From: an uncultured Bacilli bacterium
GTDB lineage: Bacteria; Bacillota_I; Bacilli_A; RF39; UBA660
Reading direction: 5' to 3'
Assembly (NCBI GenBank): GCA_934101235.1
Contig: CAKORH010000001.1
Span: 1-33,010 of the forward strand
DNA length: 33,010 nucleotides
The notes under the pieces are model-generated. The model was given only the letters and a program-made list of their open reading frames with translations, was not told the DNA's origin and made no database searches. The translations under genes were made by a program, and so were the position numbers. Shown here piece by piece: positions 3,790-26,388 of this stretch (position 1 is its first letter; each line of letters begins with the position of its first letter).

Positions 3790-4983
3790 TTAAATGTCAA
3801 ATACTTTTAAACGCATCATATCATTTTTATTTAATACGAAATTTACTGGTATTTTTACTATCATTTGAGGATGTCTAGCTACTTCTATTAAGTTATCATC
3901 TACATCATAAATTTTATCAATTATATAATTAGTTGTTTCTATATTTGGACCAAAAAATTGTACTTTGGTACCAATACTAAAATTATTTCTTTGTTCTATA
4001 GTAGCAATACCATCTTTATAATCTAATACTAAACCTAAAAAATCTTGATTAGAATATTCTTCTCTACCTAAAAAATATTGTTCATTTTTACCAGGCAATT
4101 TGTCAAAAAATTGTGGAGTAGATTCTCTATTAGCACATCTATTTAATATGTTTAGACAATAAATAGTATATGCATCGGTTAAAGAATTATTTAATATTTT
4201 ATCTATTAATCTTCTATATATTAATATAACTGTAGCAATATAATATATACTACGCATTCTTCCTTCTATCTTAAATGAATTAACTCCTACTTCTATCATA
4301 CTCTTTATAAAAGGAACCATATTTAAATCTTTAGGTGTCATACTAAAAGGTTCATTTGTTTTTAAATTTTTATCTAATCCTAAATAATCAAACTGCCATC
4401 TACATACTTGTGCACATCCACCTCTATTAGAATCTCTATTAGTAGCATAATTAGATAAAACACATCTACCACTTATACTAGTACACATAGCTCCATGTAT
4501 AAAAGCTTCTAAATCTAAATTAGTAGCACTTTTTATTCTTTTTATATCTTCCTTACTACATTCACGAGCAAGTACTAATCTTTTAGCACCTAAATCTTTA
4601 TAAAATAATGCAGCTTCATAATTAGATATACTTGCTTGTGTACTAATATGTAATTCTAACTTTAAATTTAATTCTTTATGTAACTTCATAATACTAATAT
4701 CACTTACTATTATTCCATCTACATTAACATTATCTAAATATAATAAATATTCTTTTAATCCATCTAATTCTTCATTATGTAAAACTATATTAACAGTAAC
4801 ATATACTTTCTTATTTATATTGTGAGCATATTCTACTGCACTTTTAATATCTTCATTACTAAAATTTTTAGCATTAGCACGTAAACTATAATTTACTCCA
4901 CCAATATATACAGCATCTGCTCCATACATAAACGCATACTTTAACTTTTCTATATCTCCAGCAGGACTAAGTAATTCTATCAT
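3790..4983 (-). CDS. peptidase U32 family protein (YrrO/TrhP2-like, tRNA ho5U synthesis)
   Basis: ELLSPAGD...AV..GADAVY.GG N-terminus and the U32 core ...E.F.HGA.C.S.SG.C.LS. It sits in the yrrM-yrrN-yrrO order known from B. subtilis. Confidence 0.85.
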   Translation of the reverse strand: MIELLSPAGDIEKLKYAFMYGADAVYIGGVNYSLRANAKNFSNEDIKSAVEYAHNINKKVYVTVNIVLHNEELDGLKEYLLYLDNVNVDGIIVSDISIMKLHKELNLKLELHISTQASISNYEAALFYKDLGAKRLVLARECSKEDIKRIKSATNLDLEAFIHGAMCTSISGRCVLSNYATNRDSNRGGCAQVCRWQFDYLGLDKNLKTNEPFSMTPKDLNMVPFIKSMIEVGVNSFKIEGRMRSIYYIATVILIYRRLIDKILNNSLTDAYTIYCLNILNRCANRESTPQFFDKLPGKNEQYFLGREEYSNQDFLGLVLDYKDGIATIEQRNNFSIGTKVQFFGPNIETTNYIIDKIYDVDDNLIEVARHPQMIVKIPVNFVLNKNDMMRLKVFDI

Positions 4984-6378: not shown

Positions 6379-7470
6379 CTAATATGTATACCATTTACCT
6401 TCGCTTTTTAATTTACTAACAGTTTCGGCATGTTCACTTTCAGTTTTACTAAAATATGTATTCTTATCTTTATCAGCAACAAAGTAATAATAATCATTTT
6501 CTTCTGGTTCTATAACTGCTGCTATACTAGATAAACTAGGATTACATATTGGACCTACAGGTAATGCATTTACACAATTACCTCTAGTATTATAACCATT
6601 ACAGCTATTTAAATCACTCCAAGTTAACTCACTAGAAAAATCTTTATTTACAGCATAATAAGTAGTAACATCACTACCTAATCTAATATTAGAATTTAAT
6701 CTATTATAAAATACACCAGCAACTCCACGTCTATCATTACTGTTTACCCCTTCTAATTCAACAATACTTGCTAAAGTTAAATATTGATGTACACTATATT
6801 TTCCAACTTCTATTTCATCTTTATAAGTACTTAATTTACTATCTAAATTACTTAAAAATCTATCTATAATATCTTCTATAGTACTGTTTTTCTTAAATTC
6901 ATATGTATCAGGATATAAATATCCCTCTAATGAAACATAAATATCAGAATTTAATATATCTTCACTTAAAAACCAATATTTATTTATTAAAGTTTCTAAA
7001 TAATCTTTATCACTTATTTTATTTTTAATTTCTTCTTCACTAATATTAAATACATCAGATATTTGTTTTATATATGTACTAACTCTTTTACCTTCTATAA
7101 ATGTTATAGTAATAGTTTCATTTTCTATATTATCTTGGTTAGCAATCATATTAATAATTTCATTAGTACTCATATCTTTACTTAATTTATAAGTACCAGC
7201 ATATAAATCTTTATCTAACACTTTAAGAATTACTTTAGCAAAAAACTCGCTTCTTATTAAATTTTTATTTTTTAAATTCTTAACTATCTCTATTTTACTA
7301 GTACCACTATCAATAGTAAATGATATTTGTTTATCATTATGACTATCTACAGGAGAAACTTTATATAAGAATAACAACATAAAACTAACAAATATTATTA
7401 CTAAAACTATTAATGAACATAAAACAATTTTCTTTATTTTTTTATCCATTAACATCTTCTCCTTTATCAT
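6379..7470 (-). CDS. mltG: endolytic murein transglycosylase MltG (YceG family)
   Basis: N-terminal TM segment followed by YceG-type motifs: LASIVE.E, GV..NRL......L..D.T..Y, YNTR...GLP.GPI.NP. Confidence 0.88.
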   Translation of the reverse strand: MIKEKMLMDKKIKKIVLCSLIVLVIIFVSFMLLFLYKVSPVDSHNDKQISFTIDSGTSKIEIVKNLKNKNLIRSEFFAKVILKVLDKDLYAGTYKLSKDMSTNEIINMIANQDNIENETITITFIEGKRVSTYIKQISDVFNISEEEIKNKISDKDYLETLINKYWFLSEDILNSDIYVSLEGYLYPDTYEFKKNSTIEDIIDRFLSNLDSKLSTYKDEIEVGKYSVHQYLTLASIVELEGVNSNDRRGVAGVFYNRLNSNIRLGSDVTTYYAVNKDFSSELTWSDLNSCNGYNTRGNCVNALPVGPICNPSLSSIAAVIEPEENDYYYFVADKDKNTYFSKTESEHAETVSKLKSEGKWYTY

Positions 7471-7717
7471 TTATACTAGAAAATATTTGTTCTATTATGG
7501 TCCATTCTTCTTCAGTTTCTATAGTACCTAAATTTCCATTATCTTTACTACTATCATATGTATTAGCATAAACTTTTATATTTCCCATATCATCCTTAGT
7601 ATTATCTGTGTATACTATATAACTTTTATTAGTATCTTTACTATCAAAAGTAAATAAAACATCACATTCTATTTCTTCATTATTTTCATTTTTAACAATT
7701 ATTTTACCTATATCCAT
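7442..7717 (-). CDS. DUF1292 protein (YrzB-like)
   Basis: I.V.....NEEIECDVLFTF......KSYIVYT ... IETEEEW..IE pattern. Its position between ruvX and mltG matches B. subtilis. Confidence 0.8.
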   Translation of the reverse strand: MDIGKIIVKNENNEEIECDVLFTFDSKDTNKSYIVYTDNTKDDMGNIKVYANTYDSSKDNGNLGTIETEEEWTIIEQIFSSINDKGEDVNG

Positions 7718-7721
7718 ATCA

Positions 7722-8135
7722 TTACCCTTTCTTACTCTTTAAAAATGTATCTAGTATAATACTAGCTGCATATGCATCTATTATTTTTTTACGTTTATAT
7801 CTAGAAGTATCACTACTAAGTAATATATTTTCTGCTTCCTTAGTAGATAATCTTTCATCTACTAAATATATAGGAATACTTATTTTTTCTTCTAACAAGT
7901 TTTTAAAATTAATACTTCTTTCACTAGCAAAACCTAAACTATTATTCATATTTTTAGGTAAACCAAGTACTAATGCATCAATACCTTCTTCATTAATAAT
8001 ATTAATTACATCACTAACTAAAGAATTTATATCCTCATATCTCAATACTTTAAATGGACTAGCAATTATACCAAGTTTATCACTTATAGCTAATCCCAAA
8101 GTCTTAGTACCTAAATCTAATCCTAAGTATTTCAT
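7722..8135 (-). CDS. ruvX: Holliday-junction resolvase-like nuclease RuvX (YqgF)
   Basis: LGLDLGTKTLGLAISD ... VLGLPKNMNNS.G ... VDERLST motifs. Confidence 0.9.
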   Translation of the reverse strand: MKYLGLDLGTKTLGLAISDKLGIIASPFKVLRYEDINSLVSDVINIINEEGIDALVLGLPKNMNNSLGFASERSINFKNLLEEKISIPIYLVDERLSTKEAENILLSSDTSRYKRKKIIDAYAASIILDTFLKSKKG

Positions 8136-8380
8136 AAATTCATTCTCATATAATCCTTTAATACTATTTCTAATATTTTTTCTCTATCAATACTAGTTAT
8201 TTTATTTCTAGCATCTTCAAAACTAGTTATATATCCTGGATCACCAGTAATTAAATAACCAATAATTTGACTTACAGGATTATATCCTCTACTTTCTAAA
8301 CTTCTATATACTTCAATTAATGTTTTACTAACTAATGCATTTTCTATTTCACTTATTTTAAACATACTTGTTTTATCCAT
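8132..8380 (-). CDS. ireB: IreB-family regulatory phosphoprotein (UPF0297, YrzL-like)
   Basis: V...L...GYNPV.QI.GYL.TGDP.YIT....AR pattern. The track start at 8389 is a GTG inside the RBS (GGAGTG). The ATG at 8380 lies 8 nt after GGAG. Confidence 0.85.
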   Translation of the reverse strand: MDKTSMFKISEIENALVSKTLIEVYRSLESRGYNPVSQIIGYLITGDPGYITSFEDARNKITSIDREKILEIVLKDYMRMNL

Positions 8381-8403
8381 AATTAACACTCCTAGTCAAT
8401 ATA

Positions 8404-8585: not shown

Positions 8586-9581
8586 TCATTTAGTAAATTT
8601 TTTAGCTTTGACTAGATCTAGGTCACTATTTTCATATGATTTTAAGTATTGCCTTAAAAAATATAATTTATCTAAATTATTTGAAAATATCATATCACAA
8701 AATTCTAATGCTTCTGATAAATATATTTCATTATAAAGATTATATTTTATATCTTGAAGTTTATTTTTTCTATAATTAATAATATCATTATCAATTTCAT
8801 TATTTTTTGAAGATAATAATAATTTAACAAAAAAATTTATATTATTTTGCCATATTATAGGATTTAATGTTCCATTAGGACATCTAAATTCTATAGTATT
8901 ATTTAGATTAATATTACTTGCATCATATGCATTATATAAATTTACGGCTTGGTGTCTTTCATAAGATATTCTTTTAATAATATCTCTTACCTCTATTTCT
9001 TTTTCTTCCATTAAACTTTTATAATCACACCAAAAATATTTTGATACAGGAAAAGCATATTTAAGAATACTAGGACGTGCTGTTAAATATTCTCCATAAG
9101 AAAATCTAAAAATAATATTTTCATATACTGACCATAATTTGATAAAATTTAGCCATGATTCTATGTTGTCACCTAAAACTTGTGTACCTATATGAATATG
9201 TCCTCCAGAATGTGGACCTATAATTGCATTCTTTTTAATTGCTAAACATATTTTTTTCAAATCATTCCATGAATTTGGTACATCAGTTAAAACTGGAGAA
9301 TTTATTTCTCCACCATTTCTCAATGATCCATCAGCTTTTGTTATCCAATCAAATGTTTTTATATTTGATAATTCTTTTGTTATTTTTTCTTTGTTAGCAT
9401 TTTCATATTCGATTTCTATACCACATGTTACAGATTTATCAAGGTTTAATGATTCTCTAAGTTCTAGATAATAAGTATCTAAATAAAATATTAAATCTTG
9501 TAATTCTTTCCCATTCATTTTCGATAAAATATCATTATTTTTAGGATTAATATAATTAAATAATTCATTATTTTTCATCAT
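8586..9581 (-). CDS. putative amidoligase (glutamine-synthetase-fold, Amidoligase_2-like)
   Basis: Four ordered motifs: CGIEIEYE (ExE), GGEINSPVL, HSGGHIHIG and TIEFRCPNGT. These match the metal- and ATP-binding strands of the GS-like amidoligase family as I recall it. A GAGG RBS overlaps the stop of the upstream gene. Confidence 0.7.
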   Translation of the reverse strand: MMKNNELFNYINPKNNDILSKMNGKELQDLIFYLDTYYLELRESLNLDKSVTCGIEIEYENANKEKITKELSNIKTFDWITKADGSLRNGGEINSPVLTDVPNSWNDLKKICLAIKKNAIIGPHSGGHIHIGTQVLGDNIESWLNFIKLWSVYENIIFRFSYGEYLTARPSILKYAFPVSKYFWCDYKSLMEEKEIEVRDIIKRISYERHQAVNLYNAYDASNINLNNTIEFRCPNGTLNPIIWQNNINFFVKLLLSSKNNEIDNDIINYRKNKLQDIKYNLYNEIYLSEALEFCDMIFSNNLDKLYFLRQYLKSYENSDLDLVKAKKFTK

Positions 9582-9585
9582 AAAT

Positions 9586-10422
9586 TTACCTCGTTAATCT
9601 ATTATAATTATCTTTCTTTATTTCTAATTTTTTTGTAATATAATCAACATCTATAGGTTTATATTGTTCATTTAAATCTGCAACACTTCTCCTATAATTA
9701 AATGAAGAAACATTTTTTCTATAATATGATGGTATAATTTCAGAAATATAAATAACTATAAAATATAGAAATAAAAGCACAAGATCATCTCCATCTTGTT
9801 TTTTATATGTAACATATTCAAATTCATCTTTATTTTTATTAAATATAATTGTTTTAAAAGATGGCTTATTTGTTAATTCATTATTTATATTATTTTTTGT
9901 TTCAGTTATAGTCGAATCTGGATTTTCTAATAATTGTTTTAAATTATCATTATCATAATCTTTTGTATTAAATAATTCTATTAACTGGTTATATGATTTA
10001 TTACTCATATTATATTCTTTCACAATTCTACTATATGTACCATTATTATTTAGTTTCCATTCAGAGTAGTAATAAATTCTATTTACAGCATTTTTAAATT
10101 TTCCATATTTTTCTTCATATCTTATATTTCCATTACTATCAGTTTCAGTCATAGTATTTTTATATTTTTTAATACTTATATTATCATTCATAAATGGTAG
10201 TCCACATACTGAAAATAATTTACTTGATGCTATTGAAGCAGTTAAAATATATGGAGCTATTTGATGTATTTTTTTAACGCTTATTTTCAAATTTTTTATG
10301 ATTTTATTTTTGCTGTTAACTTTTTCAGGATATTTTTTTGCGTTTTCTAAATATTTTATTTCTTTTTTTAAATTTTTTAACATCTTTTTTTGTTTAATTA
10401 CTTTTAATCTATTTTGTAACAT
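9586..10422 (-). CDS. hypothetical lysine-rich protein with two hydrophobic (TM-like) segments
   Basis: Basic, coiled N-terminus (LQNRLKVIKQKKMLKNLKKEIKYLENAKK). Hydrophobic segments are IAPYILTASIASSKLFSVCGLPF and LVLLFLYFIVIYISEIIPSYY. Start placed at the ATG at 10422 after AAGGGGGA. The track start at 10461 lies inside the predicted -10 box. Confidence 0.6.
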   Translation of the reverse strand: MLQNRLKVIKQKKMLKNLKKEIKYLENAKKYPEKVNSKNKIIKNLKISVKKIHQIAPYILTASIASSKLFSVCGLPFMNDNISIKKYKNTMTETDSNGNIRYEEKYGKFKNAVNRIYYYSEWKLNNNGTYSRIVKEYNMSNKSYNQLIELFNTKDYDNDNLKQLLENPDSTITETKNNINNELTNKPSFKTIIFNKNKDEFEYVTYKKQDGDDLVLLFLYFIVIYISEIIPSYYRKNVSSFNYRRSVADLNEQYKPIDVDYITKKLEIKKDNYNRLTR

Positions 10423-10451
10423 TTTAACTTTATCCCCCTTTAAGACAACAT

Positions 10452-10480
10452 ATATTATCATACTTTTTATATTTCTTCAA
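10452..10480 (-). promoter_or_regulatory. promoter of the two-gene amidoligase cassette
   Basis: Minus strand: TTGAAG-17 nt-TAATAT with an upstream TGn extension (-35 at 10480..10475, TGA at 10460..10458, -10 at 10457..10452). Confidence 0.55.
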
Positions 10481-10617: not shown

Positions 10618-10691
10618 TGGCAGGGGTGGAGAGAATCGAACTCCCATCAAAAGTTTTGGAGACTCCTATGCTACCATTATACCACACCCCT
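10618..10691 (-). tRNA. trnW: tRNA-Trp (anticodon CCA), 3' CCA encoded
   Basis: The reverse complement reads AGGGGTG TG GTATAATGGTAGCATA GGAGT CTCCAAA ACTTT TGAT GGGAG TTCGATT CTCTC CACCCCT G CCA. It has a 7-bp acceptor stem, anticodon loop CU-CCA-AA and T-loop TTCGATT. Confidence 0.93.
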
Positions 10692-11793: not shown

Positions 11794-14139
11794 TTAATTA
11801 CTCCATTTCCAATTTTCTACTTCTTCTAAGTCAGTACCAAACATTTTTATATGTGCATTATGTTTAATTAACTCTTTAATACAATAATCAGTAATATCAA
11901 ATTTGTTATATTTATCATCTATAAGTTTCATAACATTTAAACATATATTAAATCTATCTATTTCATTTTTTACTCTCATATCAAATGGAGTAGTTATTGC
12001 TCCTTCTTCTTTGTAACCTATCACTTTAATATTTTTATTATTTCTATCAATAACTAATTCTTTAATTAAATTAGGATATCCATGAAATACAAACAAAATA
12101 GGTTTATCTTTGGTAAATAAATAATCATACTCTATATCACTTAGACATTCACTATATTCTTTATCTAACTTTAATAAATTATTTATATTAACTACCCTAA
12201 CCTTTAAATCAGGTAAATATTTCTTTAAAATTGTTTTACTTGCTAATACTTCAAGAGTTGGAGTATCACCTGCACATGCTAAAACTATGTCAGGATCTTT
12301 ATCACTTGCCCAAGACCATATACTAACACCATTTTTAACATGTTTTTTAGCATCTTCCATACTTAACCATTGTGGTCTTTCATGTTTACTAGCTACTATA
12401 GCATTAACTTTACCATTTTCATTTAATAAACTATTATATGTACAAATTAATGTATTAGCATCACTTGGTAAATAAATACCAATCATATCTTTCTTTTTAG
12501 TAGCTAAATGATTTAAAAAGCCAGGTTCTTGATGAGTATAACCATTATGATCTTGTTGCCATATATGACTTGTTAATATTATATTTAATGATGAAATATT
12601 TTCTCTCCAATATATTTCATTGGAAGCTTTCATCCATTTAAGATGTTGACTTACCATTGAATCTATTATTCTAGAAAATGCTTCATAAGTATGAAATAAT
12701 CCATGTCTACCAGTTAGTATATAACCTTCAAGTAATCCTTCACAGACATTTTCTGATAAAAATGAATCAATTATTCTTCCGTTTTGATTTAAATATTCAT
12801 CTGTATCTATTATATTTGAATTCCACTCTCTATTAGTTATATCAAATACATAATTTAATCTATTTGATAATGCTTCATCTGGTCCAAATATTCTATAGTT
12901 ATCTAAATTATTTTTAATTAAATCTCTAATATATTTACCTAACTCTTTCATATCCATAGATTTAGTATCACCATGATTAATTACTTTAACACCATAATTT
13001 GAAACATCTGGTAAATTCAAATCTTTTTTTAATAGTCCACCATTAGCATGAATATTATTACCCATTCTAAATTCAATGTCAGGTACAAATAATTTATATT
13101 TATCTCTTAATTTACCTGTTTCATCAAATAATTCATCAGGTTTATAACTCTTAAGCCAATTTTCAAGTAAATCTAAGTATTCTGGATGTTTACTATCAAC
13201 TACTACTGGAACTTGATGACTTCTAAATGAATTTTCTATCATTTTTCCTTCTACTTCTTTTGGTCCAGTCCATCCCTTAGGACTTCTTAATATTATTAAA
13301 GGTAATTTATGATGGTAATCATTATTTAATGCTGCTACATGTCTTTCATTTATTTTAGCTACTGCATAATCTAAAACTTCTGCCATTCTTTGATGCATAT
13401 AAGTAGTATCACTACCAGAAACAAATAGTACTTCATAACCCATTCCACTAAACATACTCTCAAGTTCATCATCACTCATACGTCCAAGTATTGTAGGATT
13501 TGCAATTTTATAACCATTTAAATGCAATATAGGTAAAACTACTCCATCTGTTAAAGGATTAATAAATTTATTTAAATGCCAACTAGTTGCAAGACTTCCA
13601 GTTTCTGCTTCACCATCTCCAACTACACATGCTGCAATTAAATCAGGATTATCCAGTATAGCACCATAAGCATGAGCTAAACTATAACCTAATTCTCCAC
13701 CTTCATTTATAGAACCAGGCGTTTCAGGCGCAACATGACTTGATACGCCACCAGGAAATGAAAATCTTTTACATAATGCTTTTATTCCATTTTCATCTTC
13801 TGTTATTTCTGGATAATATTTAGAATATGTTCCTTCCAAATAATTATTGCTTATCATAGCTTGTCCACCATGTCCAGGACCAGATATATATATCATATCT
13901 AAATAAAATTTTTTTATAATTCTATTTAAATGTGCATATATAAAGTTTTGTCCAGGTGCTGTTCCCCAATGCCCTACTAATCTAGGTTTTACATCACTAA
14001 TTTCTAATTTACGTTTTAGTAAAGGATTATCTAATAAATATAATTGAGCACAAGACAAATAATTACTTGCTCTAAAAAAACCATCAATACTTCCTAATTC
14101 TTCAATGCTTAATACATTGCTTATACTCTTTCTATCCAT
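11794..14139 (-). CDS. xfp: xylulose-5-phosphate/fructose-6-phosphate phosphoketolase
   Basis: 781 aa. Has the hallmark motifs GHWGT.PG.NF.Y.H.NR, EGGELGY and GDGE.ETG (ThDP binding). Colinear with XFP family enzymes. Confidence 0.95.
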   Translation of the reverse strand: MDRKSISNVLSIEELGSIDGFFRASNYLSCAQLYLLDNPLLKRKLEISDVKPRLVGHWGTAPGQNFIYAHLNRIIKKFYLDMIYISGPGHGGQAMISNNYLEGTYSKYYPEITEDENGIKALCKRFSFPGGVSSHVAPETPGSINEGGELGYSLAHAYGAILDNPDLIAACVVGDGEAETGSLATSWHLNKFINPLTDGVVLPILHLNGYKIANPTILGRMSDDELESMFSGMGYEVLFVSGSDTTYMHQRMAEVLDYAVAKINERHVAALNNDYHHKLPLIILRSPKGWTGPKEVEGKMIENSFRSHQVPVVVDSKHPEYLDLLENWLKSYKPDELFDETGKLRDKYKLFVPDIEFRMGNNIHANGGLLKKDLNLPDVSNYGVKVINHGDTKSMDMKELGKYIRDLIKNNLDNYRIFGPDEALSNRLNYVFDITNREWNSNIIDTDEYLNQNGRIIDSFLSENVCEGLLEGYILTGRHGLFHTYEAFSRIIDSMVSQHLKWMKASNEIYWRENISSLNIILTSHIWQQDHNGYTHQEPGFLNHLATKKKDMIGIYLPSDANTLICTYNSLLNENGKVNAIVASKHERPQWLSMEDAKKHVKNGVSIWSWASDKDPDIVLACAGDTPTLEVLASKTILKKYLPDLKVRVVNINNLLKLDKEYSECLSDIEYDYLFTKDKPILFVFHGYPNLIKELVIDRNNKNIKVIGYKEEGAITTPFDMRVKNEIDRFNICLNVMKLIDDKYNKFDITDYCIKELIKHNAHIKMFGTDLEEVENWKWSN

Positions 14140-14164
14140 AAATATACCTCTCTATTCTAAAAAT

Positions 14165-14173
14165 ATTATAGCA
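14165..14173 (-). promoter_or_regulatory. extended -10 promoter element upstream of xfp
   Basis: The minus strand reads TGCTATAAT about 25 nt upstream of the xfp ATG. There is no good -35 box. Confidence 0.4.
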
Positions 14174-14249
14174 TTATTTAGAATAAAAAAAAAGAAAAAA
14201 ATAGTATTTTAACTATATGATTTTTCTTTTTAATAATTAACTATTAGTT

Positions 14250-15260
14250 TTATTTTTGAAAAAAATATTCTTGACTCTTTCCATTTAAATCATATGTTGT
14301 AAATTTACCCTTTAAATATAAAGGATATGCAGCACATGCAATCATAGTAGCATTATCAGTACAATATTTTATAGGTGGAATAGATAAATCTACATTTAAT
14401 TTATCACATAATTTATCTAACTCACTTCTTAAATATTTATTAGCACTAACACCACCTGCTACAATAAGTCTTTTAATTCCGGTATTTTTTATAGCCAATT
14501 CTGTTTTTCTTATTAATTCATTTATTGCAATAGTTTGAAAACTACATGCTAAATCTTCTTTTCTTATTTCATTACCTCTTTGAAATTCATTATGTACTAA
14601 ATTAATAACAGCACTCTTAAGTCCACTAAAAGACATATTAAGTTCATTATTATTCATAGGTATAGGCAACTTATAAGTGTCTTGTCCTTTTAATGCATAT
14701 TTTTCTACATTAGGTCCACCAGGGTATTTTAAGCCTAATACTCTAGCAACTTTATCATAACATTCTCCAATTGCATCATCTAATGTAGTGCCTAACACAG
14801 AAAATGTATAAGGATCATCCATACGTACAATTTCAGTATGTCCTCCACTAACAACTAAAGCAAGCGTAGGATATTCTATTTTTTTAACTAAATTATTAGC
14901 AAATATATGTCCCGCTATATGATGTACTTTAATTAATGGTTTATTATAAACAAAAGATAATACTTTAGCAAACTCTATACCAACAAGTAAACTACCTAAT
15001 AAACCAGGAGCATAAGTTACTGCAATAGCATCAACATCCTCTATACTAATATCGCTCTTTTTAATTAAATCTTCTAATGCTAAAGTAATACCTTCAGTAT
15101 GCATACGACTAGCAATTTCAGGTACTACACCCCCATATATAGCATGAGTATCCATTTGTGTTAATACAGTAGTAGCAATATCTACACATCCATTCTTAAC
15201 TATAGATATACTAGTTTCATCACAACTACTTTCTATTCCTAATATATAAACATCTTTCAT
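14250..15260 (-). CDS. tsaD: tRNA N6-adenosine threonylcarbamoyltransferase TsaD
   Basis: ILGIESSCDETS N-terminus, H..GH metal site (HHIAGH) and VAGGVSAN motif. Confidence 0.95.
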   Translation of the reverse strand: MKDVYILGIESSCDETSISIVKNGCVDIATTVLTQMDTHAIYGGVVPEIASRMHTEGITLALEDLIKKSDISIEDVDAIAVTYAPGLLGSLLVGIEFAKVLSFVYNKPLIKVHHIAGHIFANNLVKKIEYPTLALVVSGGHTEIVRMDDPYTFSVLGTTLDDAIGECYDKVARVLGLKYPGGPNVEKYALKGQDTYKLPIPMNNNELNMSFSGLKSAVINLVHNEFQRGNEIRKEDLACSFQTIAINELIRKTELAIKNTGIKRLIVAGGVSANKYLRSELDKLCDKLNVDLSIPPIKYCTDNATMIACAAYPLYLKGKFTTYDLNGKSQEYFFQK

Positions 15261-15667
15261 TTAACCATCTCCATAACATAAGCATCATTATTCAAATAAT
15301 AATTCTTTCTTATATTAATAATTTTAAAATTATATTTATTATATAATTTAATAGCATATATATTATCACATCTAACTTCTAACATTATTCTTTCATAATC
15401 AAATGTATTAATCATATATTCCATTAATTTACTACCTATACTTTTATTTCTATATAATTTATCAACAACTATATATAAAAGATCAATAACTTCATAACAT
15501 TTATTAATTACAATAAATCCAACTAATTTATTATCTAAATAATATCCAAATATATTATCATTACTAATTAATTCACTAATATTATTTAATTTATCAAAAT
15601 CATTATTTATTAATTTACCTAATTCTATTATTCTATCTATATCTACAAGACTACATTTATTTACCAT
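15257..15667 (-). CDS. rimI: GNAT acetyltransferase, RimI-like
   Basis: 136-aa GNAT core (V....R.K.IG..L). It occupies the tsaB-rimI-tsaD operon position and overlaps both neighbours. Confidence 0.75.
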   Translation of the reverse strand: MVNKCSLVDIDRIIELGKLINNDFDKLNNISELISNDNIFGYYLDNKLVGFIVINKCYEVIDLLYIVVDKLYRNKSIGSKLMEYMINTFDYERIMLEVRCDNIYAIKLYNKYNFKIINIRKNYYLNNDAYVMEMVK

Positions 15668-16235
15668 TTAATACTTCTATTCCCTTTATATATATTGGAT
15701 TAACATTATGAGATAAAGTACTATCTACGTTTAATAAATATTTATAAATTTTTTCTAAATCAAATTTATTATCTAATACTAAGTATTTTTCTTTATCTTT
15801 TATATATTCATTAAATTCACTATTTTTTAAGTATATATATTCTATAACTTTATTATTTTGATCAAAGTATCCAACATATTTTCCTTTCATATCAGATATA
15901 GCTATAACTTTTTTATCATTACTATCTAAACTTACAGCATATGCTAACAAACTTGTAATAGTTTTAATAGGTATATTTAATGTATAAGCAAAAGTTTTTG
16001 CAATGGTAACTCCTATTCTAACTCCAGTAAACGAACCAGGTCCATTTACAACTATTATTTCATTTAATTTTTTTACATCTATTTTATTCTTATTTAATAT
16101 ACTTTCTATCATAGGCATGGTATATACACTATGATTTTGAGTAGATTCTTTTATATTTGTATCTAATACTTTACCATCTTTTAGTAATCCAATAGTAATA
16201 ATTTTATCAAAAGTACTAATAAATAATGTATACAT
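15657..16235 (-). CDS. tsaB: tRNA threonylcarbamoyladenosine biosynthesis protein TsaB
   Basis: VVNGPGSFTGVRIGVT.AK motif typical of TsaB/YeaZ, supported by operon context. Confidence 0.85.
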   Translation of the reverse strand: MYTLFISTFDKIITIGLLKDGKVLDTNIKESTQNHSVYTMPMIESILNKNKIDVKKLNEIIVVNGPGSFTGVRIGVTIAKTFAYTLNIPIKTITSLLAYAVSLDSNDKKVIAISDMKGKYVGYFDQNNKVIEYIYLKNSEFNEYIKDKEKYLVLDNKFDLEKIYKYLLNVDSTLSHNVNPIYIKGIEVLNGK

Positions 16236-16255
16236 AATATCACTTCCGTTATCGT

Positions 16256-16264
16256 ATTATATCA
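16256..16264 (-). promoter_or_regulatory. extended -10 promoter element for tsaB-rimI-tsaD
   Basis: The minus strand reads TGATATAAT about 20 nt upstream of the tsaB ATG (RBS GGAAGTGA). Confidence 0.45.
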
Positions 16265-16296
16265 TAAAAAAATAGCAATTACAAAACTTGCTATTT
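16264..16296 (-). terminator. rho-independent terminator at the proximal edge of the decayed element
   Basis: 9-bp stem AAATAGCAA/TTGCTATTT (16270..16278 and 16288..16296), followed by a T7 run on the minus strand. Confidence 0.6.
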
Positions 16297-16312
16297 ATGG
16301 TTATGTTATAAA

Positions 16313-16650
16313 TTAATTTTCTAAAATTTTATATGGATTTGAAATAGTTTCGTCTCCAGTTGTTATTTTCACATTTGCTAAAAGTACTATTGCTGGTCTT
16401 ATTCTAATACCTTCATCATTTTCATTAAACACACTATCTATAGTTAATTCTCCCTCTCTTATCTATATAAAATGCACTGTCGTTTCCAGAAAGAGAACTT
16501 GCTATTATTGATGTGCTATAATCTAATATTGTTAATGTCCAATAATATCCGTGTTATGTTGTTGATGTACTAATTAAAGTTTCAGTTGGTGCTTCATCTA
16601 CTTTGTCTGTATAATATTTGTAACCTGATATAGCTGATGTAGACACTTGT
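16313..16650 (-). pseudogene. C-terminal fragment of a surface-protein-like gene, with an in-frame stop and a frameshift
   Basis: My minus-strand translation gives QVSTSAISGYKYYTDKVDEAPTETLISTSTT*HGYYWTLTILDYSTSIIASSLSGNDSAFYID. After a frame change it continues REGELTIDSVFNENDEGIRIRPAIVLLANVKITTGDETISNPYKILEN*. There is no N-terminal part, because dinD ends at 16665. Confidence 0.45.
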
Positions 16651-16664
16651 TAAATCCAAATTTA

Positions 16665-17498
16665 TTATTTCATTTCTATTTTTTCTTGATAATATTTTTC
16701 TTTTTCTAATTCTTTTAACGATTTTTTAGGTGTTGGTAATTTTTCTGGCATTGTTCCACCATTTTTAGCAATTACCTCTCTAATGTTTTTTCCAATATTA
16801 TAATGTGTTTCGTTGGCATCTTTTTCACTAGATATATTATCTCTTTTTAATTTTGATTCAGTTTGAGTTATACGGAAAAGGTTGGCTGCTAATTCTTCAC
16901 TTCCCATATTATCTAAAATTTCTTCACGATATCTTAAATTTTTTCTTTTAGCAATATCATTAGCAGTTTCACCATTATATAATCCTTTATATCCCGCATT
17001 ATGAAATTTATCAAAATTTTTAACTCCACACTTTTTAGCGACTTGATTTAAAGAATAATTTCCTTTTTTAGTTAAACTTCTTTGATAAAATCTTTTTTCA
17101 TCTTCAGTTAACATAGAATATTCTTTTTCAGTTAGTTCCTGTTTTCTAGTTTGTATTGCAAAATAAGTTTGTCCTAAAGCAACAACTTCTTTTCTAGGAT
17201 CTGAATTTTGTACTATCAAATAACAAGCATATCTTGATAACTTATAATCTACAATACTTCTTGAAGTTTTAGAACCTATATCAACCATTTTACCCACTTG
17301 GGTAAAATGGTCATCAATTATAAATTTACTTTGTTCACAAGCCGTTTTTGCATTTTCTATTACATTTATAAACTTTTGCCACTTTTTATAATCTAAAGCA
17401 ATTTGCAATTCTCTAGCTAACCAATACTCACTACCATATTCATCAATGTGTTTAATATCTTCAAATACTGTTTTATTATATTCTTTAATTTCGTTCAT
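16665..17498 (-). CDS. dinD: DNA-damage-inducible protein D homologue (DinD)
   Basis: 277 aa, colinear with E. coli DinD as I recall it: W.AREL...L.Y, IDDHF, LSRYACYLIVQN.DP, GQTYFAIQTR.QEL, MGSEELAANLFR.TQTE.KLKRD, GGTMPE.LPTP. Strong AGGAGGTAA RBS. Confidence 0.85.
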   Translation of the reverse strand: MNEIKEYNKTVFEDIKHIDEYGSEYWLARELQIALDYKKWQKFINVIENAKTACEQSKFIIDDHFTQVGKMVDIGSKTSRSIVDYKLSRYACYLIVQNSDPRKEVVALGQTYFAIQTRKQELTEKEYSMLTEDEKRFYQRSLTKKGNYSLNQVAKKCGVKNFDKFHNAGYKGLYNGETANDIAKRKNLRYREEILDNMGSEELAANLFRITQTESKLKRDNISSEKDANETHYNIGKNIREVIAKNGGTMPEKLPTPKKSLKELEKEKYYQEKIEMK

Positions 17499-17560
17499 AC
17501 ATTACCTCCTGTTCTTTTGTGTTCATTAGTATAGAAAAAGTCCATATTTATCATTTTATA

Positions 17561-17749
17561 TTATATTCTTATTGTTTTCTTTGAATCTAACATAGATTTT
17601 GTTAATGATAATGTTGATGTCATTGTTTTATTATTCCAATTATATAATAACATATATTTATTTTCTTTAACCCACTTAATAGCAATATTCTTATTTTTTT
17701 CTGGAATATTACCAACCAATACTTTAAAATCTATAAAGATATTGATATT
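17561..17749 (-). pseudogene. fragment resembling the C-terminal half of a DUF4160-type protein
   Basis: The open frame translates to NINIFIDFKVLVGNIPEKNKNIAIKWVKENKYMLLYNWNN.... The G.lP.k....i.W......L...W pattern fits. There is no start codon and no N-terminal half. Confidence 0.25.
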
Positions 17750-18230
17750 TCATATAATTCAAATATCTTTCTAACAACTTCAGCTGCAATAAAGTCAATT
17801 ATTAATTTGTGTCCATCTTCTCGTTTGTTTTTAAATGATCTTTTTATATTTACTGATAAATCATCTAAAAACCATTCGTTCATAAAACCATTTATTTGTC
17901 TTGATTTTTTATCAGATTCAATACTTGTATCTGCATTATCAACAATACTTATAAATCTAACTTTCCATTCAATAATTTCCATATTTCTTTAATATCTTGA
18001 TTGACTTTTGCATAAAACTAAATTACTCTATTAAAATCAGGGCAATTAACTTTAGCTTTTGAAAAATCATCAGAGTATATATCTACAAAATTCCAACCAA
18101 ATTGACACGCATATTTTAAACACATACTTCTTTGATTTATTATACTATCACTATTATCATTTTTATTTACCTTATCTCTATCTTCATCAGATAATCTACA
18201 ATATACACCTACCTTTACTATTATAGCCAT
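17731..18230 (-). pseudogene. decayed large serine recombinase (two fragments with internal deletions; C-terminal domains absent)
   Basis: Fragment 1 (18018..18230) reads VGVYCRLSDEDRDK...SDSIINQRSM...GW..VDIYSDD, the resolvase N-terminus with the catalytic Ser context. Fragment 2 (17731..17982) reads VRFISIVDNADT...KKSRQINGFMNEWFLDDLS.NIK...KLIID..AAEVVRKIF. About 35 aa are missing between them, and the recombinase and zinc-ribbon domains are gone. Confidence 0.65.
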
Positions 18231-18678
18231 TCCTCCAATACTACAGAATGACTACAAATACATTTGATAAATACAAGTATATTATATTTCATTTTTAAGA
18301 ATTATTTAACCTTAATTCTTGATTTTCTAGTTCCATAATGATATTAGTTGATTAATTTTGAAAGTGTACAATTGCAGCAAGTTTTGTAATCATTTATAAT
18401 GTTAAAATTTTATTTTATACTTAATTTAGTAGAACATTCATTTATTTGAATACCTACCAGTTCTTGGTAGGACACGTACTCGTGTGCTTTTGTTATGTAA
18501 TTAAATAAAACAATTAACGCATTATGTATTAGTGCCATTTAAATACACTTTTACCCTTAAAAAAGAAGAAGTATTAGTGTACTTAATATGATTAATATTA
18601 ATAATCAAAGGTTTGATTACGCATACTATCACACCCCTTTACTACTTTAAATAGTTTGAGGTAAGCACTAAAAAATGA

Positions 18679-18733
18679 ATGTTTGAGATATTATAATACT
18701 CATATATCTTATTATTACAAGAGTTTCGACAAA
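18679..18733. repeat. 55-nt intergenic element, copy B
   Basis: 48/55 identical to 123..177. The minus strand reads TTGTAA-16 nt-TATTAT. It lies 18 nt 3' of the xseB stop, at the distal edge of the decayed element. Confidence 0.6.
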
Positions 18734-18751
18734 TGTATACAAAAAAAGTGA

Positions 18752-18976
18752 TTACTCACTTTCATTTATTGTAAAATCTTCTAAAGAATCATTTTCTTCT
18801 AATATTTTATTTACACTTTTAGTTGCTTTATTTAATTTATCTGAACACACTTTTATTAGTTTCATTGCTTTACTATATTTTTCAATACTAGTTTCTAAAT
18901 CAGTATTACCACTTTCTAATTCTTTTACAATACTTTCTATTTCTAATAATAATTCGTCAAATTTTTTTTCTTCCAT
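18752..18976 (-). CDS. xseB: exodeoxyribonuclease VII small subunit
   Basis: 74 aa with F...L.ELE.IV..LE.G...LE.S...Y..G..L...C...L pattern. It overlaps the xseA stop. Confidence 0.88.
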   Translation of the reverse strand: MEEKKFDELLLEIESIVKELESGNTDLETSIEKYSKAMKLIKVCSDKLNKATKSVNKILEENDSLEDFTINESE

Positions 18977-20241
18977 TATTTATTAATCCTTTCTACTATT
19001 GCATCTATATTGCCTTTATGTAATTTAATATTTATTTTATCATTTATTTTTATATCTTTAATATTTTTTATCGTTTTATTATCTTTAGTTGTTACACTAT
19101 AACCTTTTTTTAATACATTTAATGGGTTTAATAAGTCTAATTTATTTAGTAATAATTCATATGTATTATTAAATGTATTTATTATTGAATCTGGGTTATT
19201 AAGAGTGTAATTATTTTTTAATATATCTAATTTTTTAGTACTTATATCTAAGTTATGTTTTGTTATATCATTTAGTTTGTTTATTAATGTATCTAATTTT
19301 TGTTCTTTTATTTCAAATGTTGCTAATGGATTTGTTAATACGTATGTTGATTTTAAAGTATTTAATCTTTCTTTTTTTGTATCTAGAATATTACTAATAT
19401 CTTTATTACATCTTATATCTAATTGATTTATAAAATTTCTTACATCAGTTATGTTTGGCACTGCCATTTCTGCTGCTCCTGTCGGAGTTGGTGCTCTTAA
19501 ATCTGCTACAAAATCACTTATTGTAAAGTCTATTTCATGTCCTACGGCAGAAATTATTGGAGTTTTAGCATCATATATTGCACGTGCTACTATTTCTTCA
19601 TTAAAACTCCATAAGTCTTCAATGGAACCTCCACCACGACCAACAATTAAAACATCTAAGTTGAATTCATCAGCTTTTTTTATTTGTCTTACTATGTCGT
19701 TAGCAGCTAATTCACCTTGTACTAATGCTGGAAACAATATAGTATTTGTAGATGGGAATCTTCTTTTTATCGTACTTAATATATCTCTTATTGCAGCTCC
19801 TGTTGGAGCAGTTACTATTCCTATCTTAGTTGGGAATTTTGGAATCTTCTTTTTATGATCTTGATTGAATAATCCTTCTTTTGCTAATTGTTTTTTTAGT
19901 TCTTCAAATTTTAAATAAAGATTACCTACACCATCATTTATCATTTCTTCTATATAAATTTGATAACCACCTGTAGGTTCATAAATACTAACTCTTCCTA
20001 CAACTAATACTTTCATACCATCTACTGGCATAAAATTAAGTTTACTAGCAGCACTAGAAAACATTACTGCATTAATTCTACTTGTTTCATCTTTTAAAGT
20101 AAAATATAAATGACCTCTTGTATGTCCTTTAAAATTAGATATTTCTCCTTTTAAACATAATTTTTGTATATGTGGATCAGTATCAAATTTATTTTTTAAA
20201 TATTTATTTAATGTAGTTACTGTTATATATCTTCTTTCCAT
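18976..20241 (-). CDS. xseA: exodeoxyribonuclease VII large subunit
   Basis: 421 aa. Has an OB-fold N-terminus (GEISNFK.H.RGH.YF.LKD) and the catalytic core GIVT...GAA..D......RR.P......P..VQG ... RGGGS.EDLW.FN.E. Confidence 0.93.
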   Translation of the reverse strand: MERRYITVTTLNKYLKNKFDTDPHIQKLCLKGEISNFKGHTRGHLYFTLKDETSRINAVMFSSAASKLNFMPVDGMKVLVVGRVSIYEPTGGYQIYIEEMINDGVGNLYLKFEELKKQLAKEGLFNQDHKKKIPKFPTKIGIVTAPTGAAIRDILSTIKRRFPSTNTILFPALVQGELAANDIVRQIKKADEFNLDVLIVGRGGGSIEDLWSFNEEIVARAIYDAKTPIISAVGHEIDFTISDFVADLRAPTPTGAAEMAVPNITDVRNFINQLDIRCNKDISNILDTKKERLNTLKSTYVLTNPLATFEIKEQKLDTLINKLNDITKHNLDISTKKLDILKNNYTLNNPDSIINTFNNTYELLLNKLDLLNPLNVLKKGYSVTTKDNKTIKNIKDIKINDKINIKLHKGNIDAIVERINK

Positions 20242-20282
20242 ATTTCACCTATTATATTAAAAATAATATAGAAACTACTATA

Positions 20283-20678
20283 TTATTCATTAACTATTTT
20301 ATCTAAAACAGCATTAATCATCTTTCTAACGTTTTCATCACTATATTTTTTTGCTAATTCAATTGCTTCATTAATTACAACAATATTTGGAGTATCAGTA
20401 TATTTTATTTCATATAAACTCATTCTTAATATAGTTGCACCTAAATTATCTAATCTATCTATTGTCCAATCAGTTAAATATTCATTTGCAATTTTATTTA
20501 ACTCATCATAATTATCTAACACACCATTTACAATAGTATTAACAAATTCATTAGATATTTCTATATTTTCTTTTATTACTTTATCTAAATCATAATTATA
20601 ATTGCTTTTTTTATACATATCAATTTGATATAAAATAGTCATTATTTTTTCTCTTAATTCACTTCTACTTACAGTCAT
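20283..20678 (-). CDS. nusB: transcription antitermination factor NusB
   Basis: 131 aa with R...RE...LYQ.D... and W...RL....ILR...YE...T....VINEA.ELAK. Confidence 0.9.
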   Translation of the reverse strand: MTVSRSELREKIMTILYQIDMYKKSNYNYDLDKVIKENIEISNEFVNTIVNGVLDNYDELNKIANEYLTDWTIDRLDNLGATILRMSLYEIKYTDTPNIVVINEAIELAKKYSDENVRKMINAVLDKIVNE

Positions 20679-20708
20679 TCAAATCACCTTTCGTTATTAT
20701 ATCACATA

Positions 20709-21329
20709 TTATCTTTTTTTAATATATTTACAATATTCTTTTAGTTTACATTCATTGCAGTTAGGATTTTGACTTTTACATATATACCTTCCAAATAATA
20801 CTAATTGATGATGTGTTCTACTCCATTTATCTTTTGGAAGTTTTTTCATTAATTTTTTTTCTACAGTATAAACACTATCATCTTTCTTTGCTAATCCTAA
20901 TCTTTTTGATATTCTATCTACATGAGTATCTACTGCAATAGCTGGAATATTAAAAAGATTTGATAATACTACGTTAGTAGTTTTTCTTCCCACTCCAGGA
21001 AGACTTTCTAAATATTCTCTATCATTTGGAACAATACCATTAAAATCATTTACTAAACTTTTTGCAATATTAATTATATATACACTTTTCTTTTTATAAT
21101 TTCCACAACTATAAATGATACTTTCTATATCTTTTTCTGCTGCATTACTTAAACTAAAAATATCGTATTTTTTAAATATTTCTTTAGTTACTTTATTTAC
21201 TCTAGCATCAGTACATTGTGCAGATAAAACAGTTGCGATTAATAGTTCATAATCTTTATTATAATCTAATTCACATCTAGGATTAGGTATCATTTCATCT
21301 AAATGTTTAAGTAATATTTCAGTTTTCAT
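20709..21329 (-). CDS. nth: endonuclease III
   Basis: HhH-GPD motif LPGVGRKTANVVL.., catalytic K/D context (VDTHV.R...RLG) and C-terminal Cx6CxxCx5C cluster (CKSQNPNCNECKLKEYC). Confidence 0.93.
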   Translation of the reverse strand: MKTEILLKHLDEMIPNPRCELDYNKDYELLIATVLSAQCTDARVNKVTKEIFKKYDIFSLSNAAEKDIESIIYSCGNYKKKSVYIINIAKSLVNDFNGIVPNDREYLESLPGVGRKTTNVVLSNLFNIPAIAVDTHVDRISKRLGLAKKDDSVYTVEKKLMKKLPKDKWSRTHHQLVLFGRYICKSQNPNCNECKLKEYCKYIKKR

Positions 21330-21957
21330 CTAACCAATTATATTCAAAGAAGTAATTGTTTTTTTCTTCTTTATCTTTTTTCATTCTATTATTTTCTACA
21401 TCACTAACTGTTTTATAACCTTTTTTTGTCCATTCATATATTATTTTATCTATATATCTTAAATTACTTACTCCATTTAATGTTGCTTCTTTTAATGCTT
21501 CTTTTATTAATTCTTCGCTCATTCCACTTTCTATCCAAGCATTAATAAATTCATATTCCATAGGTGACAAGGGTCTTGCAAATTCTTTTTCAAATGTTTC
21601 AAATATATTTTTACTACTTTTTTTAGCTACTTTTTTATTTATATCACATGCTGCTAATTTATATATACTATCTAGTGATATTTCTTCATTAACCCTATCT
21701 CCATCTTTAGTTATATTTGTACTTATTAAATTTTTACTAGTTAGTGAACTGAATGATTCTAATATTTCAGTGTTAGTTAATGAAGTTATGTTATTTATTA
21801 GATTTAAATCTAATACTGGATGTTCTTGATTAGTTAGATATATTAATAATAATGTTTCATTTATAGTTAAGTTATTTTCTTTTCTAATTTTAAATAGAAA
21901 TGGTCTAATTATGTAATCTTTGTTTTTGATAATACTATAAATTACTTCATTACTCAT
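21319..21957 (-). CDS. dnaD: DnaD-domain replication initiation/membrane attachment protein
   Basis: C-terminal DnaD/DnaB_2 repeat F..EF.RPLSP.E.E.I..W........ELI.EALKEA......N..YI..I...W. It has the dnaD-nth adjacency seen in B. subtilis. Confidence 0.8.
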   Translation of the reverse strand: MSNEVIYSIIKNKDYIIRPFLFKIRKENNLTINETLLLIYLTNQEHPVLDLNLINNITSLTNTEILESFSSLTSKNLISTNITKDGDRVNEEISLDSIYKLAACDINKKVAKKSSKNIFETFEKEFARPLSPMEYEFINAWIESGMSEELIKEALKEATLNGVSNLRYIDKIIYEWTKKGYKTVSDVENNRMKKDKEEKNNYFFEYNWLDEN

Positions 21958-21959
21958 AA

Positions 21960-23036: not shown

Positions 23037-23110
23037 ATTACTCCTTATAATTTATCTATTTAAATTATATCATGTATATTAGTTTTAATTAAAAAAATAC
23101 TTAGTCATTT

Positions 23111-23142
23111 ACATAAAAAAGAAAAGAGATTTACTATCTCTT
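23111..23142 (-). terminator. rho-independent terminator of the bacteriocin operon
   Basis: 7-bp stem AAGAGAT/ATCTCTT (23124..23130 and 23136..23142) with a 5-nt loop. TTTCTTTTTTAT follows on the minus strand. The stem overlaps the TAA of peptide B. Confidence 0.65.
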
Positions 23143-23433: not shown

Positions 23434-23435
23434 CT

Positions 23436-26376: not shown

Positions 26377-26388
26377 AAATCCCCCTAT

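Follow-up and report, generated by a model that had tools for sequence, protein, structure and literature searches.

The function of the glutamine synthetase-like (GS-like) amidoligases of Pfam family PF12224 (Amidoligase_2) was reportedly predicted by Iyer et al. in 2009, and to our knowledge predictions are all that has been available since, no substrate having been established for any member; in the literature that we searched, no experimentally characterised PF12224 protein was found. Where two papers touch on the phage enzymes of this family, these are described as phage-borne and as paired with either a class II glutamine amidotransferase (GATase-II)/N-terminal nucleophile (NTN) hydrolase or a gamma-glutamyl cyclotransferase (PMC10580990, PMC11318856). 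The present study examined a two-gene cassette within a 33,010-nucleotide (nt) stretch of DNA from an uncultured Bacilli bacterium (GenBank assembly GCA_934101235.1, contig CAKORH010000001.1), the whole of which is hereafter called the window, and in which the gene for a 331-amino-acid (aa) amidoligase follows the gene for a 278-aa membrane protein, hereafter the partner. The amidoligase has in common with the phage and plasmid PF12224 proteins (phiEco32, LUZ24-like, and OM43 phages) its Pfam family, its GS-like fold, and the ExE/E/HxH/ExR constellation of residues, but it differs from the phage enzymes in having a partner with two transmembrane segments (two-TM), in an extra conserved helical region at its C-terminus, in its chromosomal location, and in its absence from phage collections.

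An earlier note on this DNA, made from its letters, had read the cassette as a minimal amidoligase system that carries its own promoter and terminator and was inserted behind a tRNA gene. The comparisons reported below argue that the pairing of partner and amidoligase is real and that the partner is an accessory subunit, not an obligatory one; the cassette is not an island inserted at this tRNA. The enzyme family was already recognised, if uncharacterised, and the new part is its linkage to a large, unannotated family of two-TM proteins: neither coupling nor fusion of an amidoligase with this family was found in the libraries or literature searched.

Association of the two genes

Homologous loci were gathered in a survey seeded with the amidoligase, which covered 52 genome loci and further contigs, and in a second survey seeded with the partner. 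The amidoligase lay directly downstream of the partner in every partner-positive locus that had downstream sequence, which amounts to 23 distinct loci besides the window. In the amidoligase-seeded loci, the hidden Markov model (HMM) of the partner matched the gene directly upstream in most of the close clade, defined by an identity of about 45% or more (L001, L002, L005-L008, L010-L012, L015, L016, L018, and L021); these loci, together with L062-L066, L069, and L072-L075, make up the 23. In the partner-seeded survey, the amidoligase was found immediately downstream at five of five metagenome loci, at the distant partner locus L069, and on four further contigs. The co-occurrence of homologues, which the earlier note had proposed as a check on its reading, was borne out for the partner; the amidoligase also occurs alone.

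The junction between the genes is conserved as well. As previously noted, the two reading frames in the window are separated by 4 nt. The GAGG Shine-Dalgarno sequence of the amidoligase gene is made up of bases from the two final sense codons of the partner gene (ACG AGG) and abuts its TAA stop codon. Among 16 cassettes compared, the gap between the partner stop and the amidoligase ATG ranged from -1 to 8 nt; 13 of them have GAGG(G) within the final codons of the partner gene, at a distance of 0-5 nt from the stop, with a gap to the ATG of -1 to 6 nt. This overlap of the ribosome-binding site (RBS) with partner codons indicates translational coupling, as judged from the sequences of the junctions. 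The C-terminal Arg of the partner has AGG as its codon, which is rare at 20% GC and which with the preceding G forms the GAGG of the amidoligase gene (window positions 9586-9592, and 15 other loci); because the AGG codon doubles as part of the GAGG, the last residue of the partner and the RBS downstream are constrained jointly.

Pairwise identities of the partners and of their amidoligases are correlated (r = 0.88; Mantel test, 0 of 5000 permutations), with the partner diverging faster (mean identity of 39% vs 55% for the amidoligase). Six representative clusters of 553-636 aa, which are separate from one another at 50% identity (P0219, P0221, P0225, P0235, P0242, and P0259), proved to be fusions in which the partner forms the N-terminal and the amidoligase the C-terminal part, PF12224 being placed in the C-terminal half. 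One fusion was verified as a continuous open reading frame (ORF) on its own contig (L060, positions 903-2813), and an examination of the fusion junctions for a Trp or read-through signature found none. The C-terminus of the partner is therefore placed in the cytoplasm together with the ATP-dependent enzyme, and its free C-terminal carboxylate is dispensable. That this carboxylate might be the substrate of ligation was a possibility that we ruled out, the fusions having no free end. By its adjacency, junction, co-divergence, and fusions, the uncharacterised membrane protein that the earlier note had singled out behaves as a true conserved partner.

Amidoligases without a partner gene are found in L013, L014, L019, and L020, which fall within the partner clade or branch at its base, and in all of the more distant clades; there have thus been repeated gains or losses of the partner, which would be dispensable for catalysis. 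The solo amidoligases of other clades follow assorted housekeeping genes, and a separate conserved partner for the distant ones was ruled out, the genes upstream of them being unrelated.

Several loci depart from the simple two-gene order. One amidoligase is flanked by two partner genes in L015 (508-3443), two partner-like genes are followed by two tandem amidoligases in L021 (1658-5071), and a solo amidoligase and a full cassette stand 1.5 kb apart around tmk in L073 (3510-7053). At two further loci the partner gene is split into two ORFs with the downstream amidoligase intact (L007 7025-7926 and L012 58-887), which reflects either a frameshifted pseudogene or an assembly error.

The amidoligase

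The 331-aa protein matched Pfam PF12224 with 37.4 bits against a gathering cut-off of 22 (E = 3.4e-9), and the same family was carried by all 120 of the 120 homologues among the matches listed. Two PHROG families annotated as amidoligase also matched it (E = 3.7e-10 and 2.6e-5). An AlphaFold2 (AF2) model built from 38 homologues reached a predicted local distance difference test (pLDDT) score of 88.3 and a predicted template modelling (pTM) score of 0.89. In a Foldseek search of this model against the Protein Data Bank (PDB), the eight top meaningful matches were type I and type III glutamine synthetases (GS-I, GS-III) and GshA, with probabilities of 0.9-1.0 and a TM score of ~0.4; the best of these, at a probability of about 1, were the glutamine synthetases 9n4x and 8fbp, the GS-III 3o6x, and the glutamate-cysteine ligases 3nzt and 1v4g. 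A search of PDB chains at the sequence level returned no match. Membership of the GS-like Amidoligase_2 family, to which the earlier note had assigned the protein by its motifs, is upheld by the Pfam score, the PHROG families, the modelled fold, and the structural matches.

The four ordered motifs on which that assignment had been based, GIEIEYE, GGEINSP, GGHIHIG, and IEFRCPNGT, start at residues 54, 90, 126, and 230, respectively. Within them, the putative metal- and ATP-binding residues E56, E58, E92, H128, H130, E231, and R233 are invariant across 36-38 homologues, in an alignment of 36 sequences with identities down to 33% (alignment A2) and likewise in a further alignment (A3). A WQNNxN motif is invariant too, and the C-terminal helical region (about residues 260-331), which extends beyond the Pfam model, is also conserved. 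From this conservation and the modelled fold, the 331-aa protein is predicted to be an active GS-like, ATP-dependent carboxylate-amine ligase.

The membrane partner

The partner matched nothing in Pfam, NCBIfam, PADLOC, or the PHROGs, an ApoL match (E = 0.018) having been dismissed as below the cut-off, and neither Foldseek searches of PDB and BFVD with its modelled fold nor a profile search of PDB returned a relative. Searches based on a word index recovered just four or five relatives, owing to the low-complexity words of the protein, and it was an exhaustive HMM scan of 1.84 billion representatives, clustered at 50% identity, that revealed the family: 788 representative clusters matched at E <= 1e-3 and 215 at E <= 1e-30.

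The AF2 model of the partner, built from 61 sequences, had a pLDDT of 92.4. Its long first helix (residues 2-30) runs on as a membrane helix spanning 32-73; after this come a beta-rich domain at residues 84-206, the second membrane helix at 210-237, and two short C-terminal helices, a layout that corresponds to a Lys-rich cytoplasmic helix, a first transmembrane segment (TM1, about 55-75), an outside domain of ~125 aa, a second transmembrane segment (TM2, about 210-237), and a helical cytoplasmic tail ending in LEIKKDNYNRLTR. The Lys-rich N-terminus and the two hydrophobic segments described earlier were both recovered: residues 1-55 contain 17 Lys, and hydropathy peaks at 59-77 and 214-232, 155 aa apart. 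Lys and Arg together number 18 in residues 1-55 and 11 in the C-terminal tail, and the predicted topology with both termini in the cytoplasm fits the AF2 model, the hydropathy, and this positive-inside pattern of charge.

Across the family, mean identity is even along the length of the partner at 29-36% (32% in the outside domain), with the exception of TM2 at 19%. Near-invariant residues are found in the outside domain (F77, D95, Y106, W122, R132, Y137, and E174) and in the tail (L266, Y273, and L276). At the level of sequence, this pattern indicates a conserved outside function together with a conserved cytoplasmic docking helix and is unlike that of a hypervariable surface shaped by an arms race. 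No cytoplasmic Lys or Glu is invariant, and the richness in Lys ranges from 6 to 17 residues, tracking AT-rich composition.

Distribution and genomic neighbours

The cassette is widespread and not rare among metagenome-assembled genomes (MAGs) of gut Bacilli and 'Tenericutes'. A tblastn search of 50,697 phage records found no match to the pair, and IMG/VR yielded one weak match of 27% identity; the cassette is accordingly not a fragment of a known prophage, an origin that, by the earlier note, would have refuted its reading. The statement in that note that the usual companions of amidoligases are not adjacent also stands. In the window the neighbours are tRNA-Trp, a gene for a SleB-like hydrolase, ireB, ruvX, DUF1292, and mltG, and no GATase-II/NTN hydrolase, peptidase, or gamma-glutamyl cyclotransferase gene adjoins the amidoligase there or at any Pfam-annotated homologous locus. 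The gatC and gatA genes present in L002-L004 and L075 are more than 4.7 kb off and are of the Amidase family, which is distinct from the GATase-II/NTN fold. Neither protein matched the defence HMMs of PADLOC-DB v2 at E <= 1.

About half of the cassettes in the partner clade adjoin mobile or conflict genes. Genes of the same tyrosine-integrase family lie directly upstream of the cassette in L002-4, L005/L009, L008, and L075, serine recombinase genes lie beside it in L001 and L007, the latter also with a Mob_Pre relaxase gene, and other neighbours include MazEF, Fic, and a DNA methylase. The remaining cassettes lie between housekeeping genes (the window, L016, L021, L069, L072, and L073), and the cassette is found at many unrelated chromosomal sites. 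We conclude that, in low-GC gut Bacilli, it is an accessory module that is shuffled horizontally.

Some of these loci show features of their own. An integrase-cassette unit occupies one chromosomal site, between DUF2207 and a trmB-like methyltransferase gene, in the related genomes of L002/L003/L004 and L075; L002-4 differ from L075 by an extra gene, located between the integrase and partner genes and encoding 380 aa that match nothing in Pfam, and by a DnaJ gene upstream. L009 contains three copies of a 27-nt sequence with a hairpin, ATTTTTCTCAAAGT..ACTTTGAG, namely upstream of the integrase gene (4739-4765), just past it (6690-6716), and just before the partner gene (7011-7037), and these repeats could be terminators or recombination sites of an integrase-cassette element. 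In L074 (1-13020), the cassette stands on the opposite strand amid a cluster for the biosynthesis of teichoic acid or surface polysaccharide, whose genes encode Glyphos_transf, Stealth, Caps_synth, Alg14/Glyco_tran_28_C, Epimerase_2, Polysacc_synt_2, and Bac_transf domains.

The tRNA gene and the ireB site

The earlier note had proposed that the cassette was inserted at a tRNA hot spot and interrupts otherwise Bacillus-like synteny, and neither proposal held. No integrase gene lies between tRNA-Trp and ireB, the sole recombinase-like ORF of the window being an 83-aa fragment at 17731-17982. Probes of 16 and 26 nt from the 3' end of the tRNA, with up to three mismatches allowed (<=3), matched the tRNA itself only, and searches for flanking repeats of the att type, both in the window and around the integrase-linked cassettes elsewhere, found nothing convincing. 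The cassette does not deviate in composition: its GC content (0.19-0.22) and its GC at third codon positions (GC3, 0.087-0.090) are inside the range of the other 31 genes. Recent transfer had been considered on account of a dip in GC skew and was rejected, the per-gene table placing the cassette in the range of the host. Adjacency to a tRNA was seen in just a handful of related loci and took no consistent form.

As for synteny, six distant loci (L039, L042, L044, L047, L048, and L052) carry a partner-less amidoligase of a separate clade directly upstream of ireB-ruvX-DUF1292. These solo amidoligases are 36-42% identical to that of the window, ireB, ruvX, and DUF1292 follow at +1.05 to +1.8 kb, and mltG lies just upstream of the amidoligase in L044 and L052. 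Because solo amidoligases hold the same site in these loci, the cassette does not simply interrupt synteny. Either the family has long resided upstream of ireB or it has landed there repeatedly. Within this six-locus lineage, IreB is 91-100% and RuvX 61-78% identical, and the amidoligases are 41-57% identical, bar one pair at 85%. Two comparisons with RuvX at 78% illustrate the mismatch, the amidoligases being 52% identical between L042 and L044 and 85% identical between L044 and L047, which suggests, from these identities, either exchange of alleles or unusually fast evolution of the amidoligase. A search for an empty site by way of contigs with identical RuvX returned the same organism only.

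The 83-aa fragment, which is serine-recombinase-like and on the - strand, is accompanied by a Bro-N domain protein (16665-17498, - strand) in a gene-poor stretch between tsaB (15657-16235) and xseA (18976-20241). Both are probably what is left of a separate mobile element, at a distance of 6-7 kb from the cassette.

Layout of the locus and regulatory signals

The region has a GC content of ~20%, and all of the relevant genes are on the - strand (Table 1). The start of the partner gene that gives 278 aa has an RBS and is the one chosen by public gene callers; a GGGG-type RBS occurs at the same position in 12 of 16 homologous cassettes. The pair of hairpins between tRNA-Trp and the cassette folds with -17.9 kcal/mol (z = -4.14), none of 200 shuffled sequences folding equally well, and insulates the cassette from tRNA read-through.

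The promoter and terminator that had been attributed to the cassette are both present at the places described, and in this the earlier note was right. As signals, they are less secure: the promoter candidate agrees with the consensus at 8 of 12 positions, which is under the threshold of the scan, and promoter-like sites in the window occur near chance in DNA of ~20% GC (35 observed vs 27.8 +/- 5.3 expected); the downstream hairpin has two GC pairs and z = -1.66. The homologous cassettes repeat the same layout of an upstream -10-like element, an AGGGGG or GGGG-type RBS, and a downstream hairpin, and a hairpin with a T-run likewise follows the amidoligase stop in L002, L005, L006, L008, and L065. 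Because of this repetition, it is comparison and not statistics that supports a self-contained unit. A scan with Rfam for a riboswitch or other RNA element in the leader had the tRNA as its sole match.

Table 1. Features of the cassette and its immediate surroundings in the window.
Feature	Position	Strand	Basis	Remark
tRNA-Trp (anticodon CCA)	10618..10691	-	ARAGORN; Rfam RF00005, 55 bits	upstream neighbour, outside operon
Two terminator-like hairpins 3' of tRNA	10607-10589, 10581-10560	-	terminator scan	
Putative sigma-70-type promoter	TTGAAG 10480-10475, TAATAT 10457-10452	-	sequence	17-nt spacer ending TG
RBS AGGGGGA of partner gene	10439-10433	-	sequence	10 nt 5' of ATG at 10422
Partner gene, 278 aa	9586..10422	-	ORF list	longer ORF frame 9586..10461
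GAGG Shine-Dalgarno of amidoligase gene	9592-9589	-	sequence	
Amidoligase gene, 331 aa	8586..9581	-	PF12224	
Weak intrinsic-terminator-like hairpin, GAACUAAUU-loop-AAUUAGUUC then U5	8559-8529	-	RNA fold	
ireB	8132-8389	-	Pfam families on identical public contig	context, outside cassette
ruvX	7722-8135	-	Pfam families on identical public contig	context, outside cassette
DUF1292	7442-7717	-	Pfam families on identical public contig	context, outside cassette
mltG	6379-7470	-	Pfam families on identical public contig	context, outside cassette

Proposed mechanism and alternative explanations

Taking the explanation as a whole, we give an even chance to the two genes being one translationally coupled operon for the two subunits of a membrane-bound enzyme. 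The partner would be inserted with both ends in the cytoplasm and would display its beta-rich domain of ~125 aa outside the cell, and its cytoplasmic helices, chiefly the conserved C-terminal LxxxxxNYxxL tail, would keep the soluble amidoligase docked to the cytoplasmic side of the membrane. The amidoligase would spend ATP to activate a carboxylate as an acyl-phosphate and join it to an amine, as do glutamine synthetase and glutamate-cysteine ligase, and its target would be a substrate close to the membrane, be it a precursor of the envelope, a small metabolite, or the side chain of a protein. The outside domain may bind an envelope or external ligand and position or gate the ligase, a step that we propose because the fusions have the layout of receptor enzymes and because residues of the outside domain are conserved. 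Control of the ligase by the outside domain is the more tentative element, and we somewhat doubt it. A bolder extension, which we regard as unlikely, is that the pair and its fusions form a class of transmembrane receptor enzymes, spread on small mobile elements, that would respond to cues from outside (fragments of the wall, contact with a phage, or a molecule of the host, for example) by forming an ATP-dependent amide bond on a cytoplasmic or membrane target.

Several points weigh against the membrane-bound enzyme that we propose. Amidoligases are found without the partner, which means that catalysis does not depend on the partner and that the substrate could lie elsewhere than at the membrane. 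The physical complex of the two proteins, which we hold to be probable, is argued from fusion and coupling only, and the outside domain has no recognisable fold relative, so that the binding of a ligand is conjecture. A conflict role would account just as well for the mobile and conflict genes (integrases, recombinases, MazEF, Fic, or DNA methylase) found beside about half of the cassettes. In such a role, the pair would travel as cargo on small integrative or mobilisable elements and serve anti-phage defence, abortive infection, or superinfection/entry exclusion, with the partner sensing an envelope event or acting as a membrane effector and the amidoligase modifying a phage or host target; we consider this rather unlikely. 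The recurrent integrase family, the serine recombinases and the relaxase, the toxin-antitoxin, Fic, and methylase neighbours, the many unrelated sites occupied, the duplications at L015, L021, and L073, and the divergence of amidoligase alleles out of step with their housekeeping neighbours all speak for it, and exclusion roles have been proposed for phage amidoligases in two papers, both citing Iyer et al. 2009 (PMC10580990, PMC11318856). However, no PADLOC model was matched by either protein, the pair is all but missing from the phage records and IMG/VR, plain housekeeping genes flank the cassette in the window and at five other loci, the outside domain is evenly conserved instead of hypervariable, and toxin/effector-regulator pairs are seldom fused, whereas the partner and amidoligase are.

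The neighbouring genes also bear on a role in modifying the envelope, in which the tethered ligase would amidate or aminoacylate a lipid-linked precursor of peptidoglycan, teichoic acid, or polysaccharide while the outside domain contacts the wall. Cell-wall genes recur near members of the wider family, which would suit such a role: mltG and ireB near the amidoligase in the window and in six distant loci, the SleB-like hydrolase of the window, Ddl at two loci (L020 and L035), the polysaccharide deacetylase of L027, BacA with a deacetylase in L073, VanY with PBP5 in L005, and the cassette embedded in the biosynthesis cluster of L074. We take these cell-wall neighbours as no more than a lead, since in genomes this small they may be about as frequent as chance would have it; a good number of the other neighbours have no such connection (Rpe, MutL, RNase HIII, TetR, and GH31), and the recognised enzymes of peptidoglycan amidation, MurT/GatD and those of AsnB type, have folds other than that of the amidoligase. 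We regard an envelope role as improbable. Least credible to us, and in our judgement very improbable, is that the partner is itself the substrate, the ligase adding an amino acid or amine to Glu or Asp, or a carboxylate to Lys, of the cytoplasmic helix or tail in a self-contained, Pup-like tagging. Strict adjacency and co-divergence would follow from such a relationship, Lys and Glu abound in the N-terminal helix, and GS-like ligases can modify proteins, PafA being one that does. Yet the near-invariant residues of the partner are outside or are hydrophobic residues and Tyr in the tail, leaving no invariant cytoplasmic Lys or Glu as a target, the Lys number follows base composition, natural fusions dispense with the free C-terminal carboxylate, and solo amidoligases exist.

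Significance

A two-gene, sometimes fused unit that recurs across many MAGs of the gut Bacilli and 'Tenericutes' type offers a clean genetic handle on PF12224, and its small size would allow the pair to be tested directly in a surrogate host. The work also defines a sizeable family of membrane proteins that has no database entry and is firmly tied to an enzyme. If the outside domain does regulate the ligase, the amidoligase would be a new kind of receptor output, and if the pair is indeed a receptor, its output, whether in signalling or defence, would be of a chemistry not described before. Should the target be an envelope precursor or a phage component, the pair would represent a new chemistry of envelope modification or defence in members of the gut microbiota that are poorly studied and for the most part uncultured.

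Comparison with known systems

The nearest annotated plasmid relative of the amidoligase is an 'amidoligase family protein' of 468 aa on the pCW3-like plasmids of Clostridium perfringens, which is 28-29% identical over 85-91% of the query and is present in 100 plasmids. It is longer than the protein of the window, follows dcm, a small hypothetical gene, and a DUF4417 gene, and has no partner-like gene. These plasmids carry it in a conserved dcm-hypothetical-DUF4417-amidoligase block (L058, pCP8533etx 14023-27036; L059), and one 7-kb plasmid holds little else. This distant C. perfringens group accounted for all matches among plasmids.

Among enzymes of established chemistry, the points of reference are glutamine synthetase and glutamate-cysteine ligase (GshA, YbdK), which provided the best structural matches; the chemistry presumed to be shared runs from ATP through an acyl-phosphate to an amide bond. 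The amidoligase of the window is nevertheless distant from GS and GshA (TM score of ~0.4, identity of 10-12%), is smaller, and gives no evidence of GS-type features of oligomerisation. The Pup ligases PafA/Dop are likewise GS-like, act on proteins, and serve as the conceptual model for the partner as a substrate, but the system described here has no Pup-like small protein, no match to Pfam Pup_ligase, and a membrane partner without an invariant target Lys or Glu.

Two-TM sensor enzymes, such as sensor histidine kinases and membrane cyclases, share the layout of the fusions, in which an N-terminus inside the cell is followed by TM1, an outside domain of ~125 aa, TM2, a helical linker, and a catalytic domain. 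The amidoligase fusions differ from them in having an amidoligase as output and no HAMP, DHp, or other known transmitter module in Pfam, and the system usually consists of two polypeptides; we know of no amidoligase described as the output domain of a receptor. By the modelled topology, the hydropathy and charge of the partner, and the fusions with a C-terminal amidoligase, the pair has the architecture of a two-TM receptor enzyme, a likeness of architectural class and not of homology.

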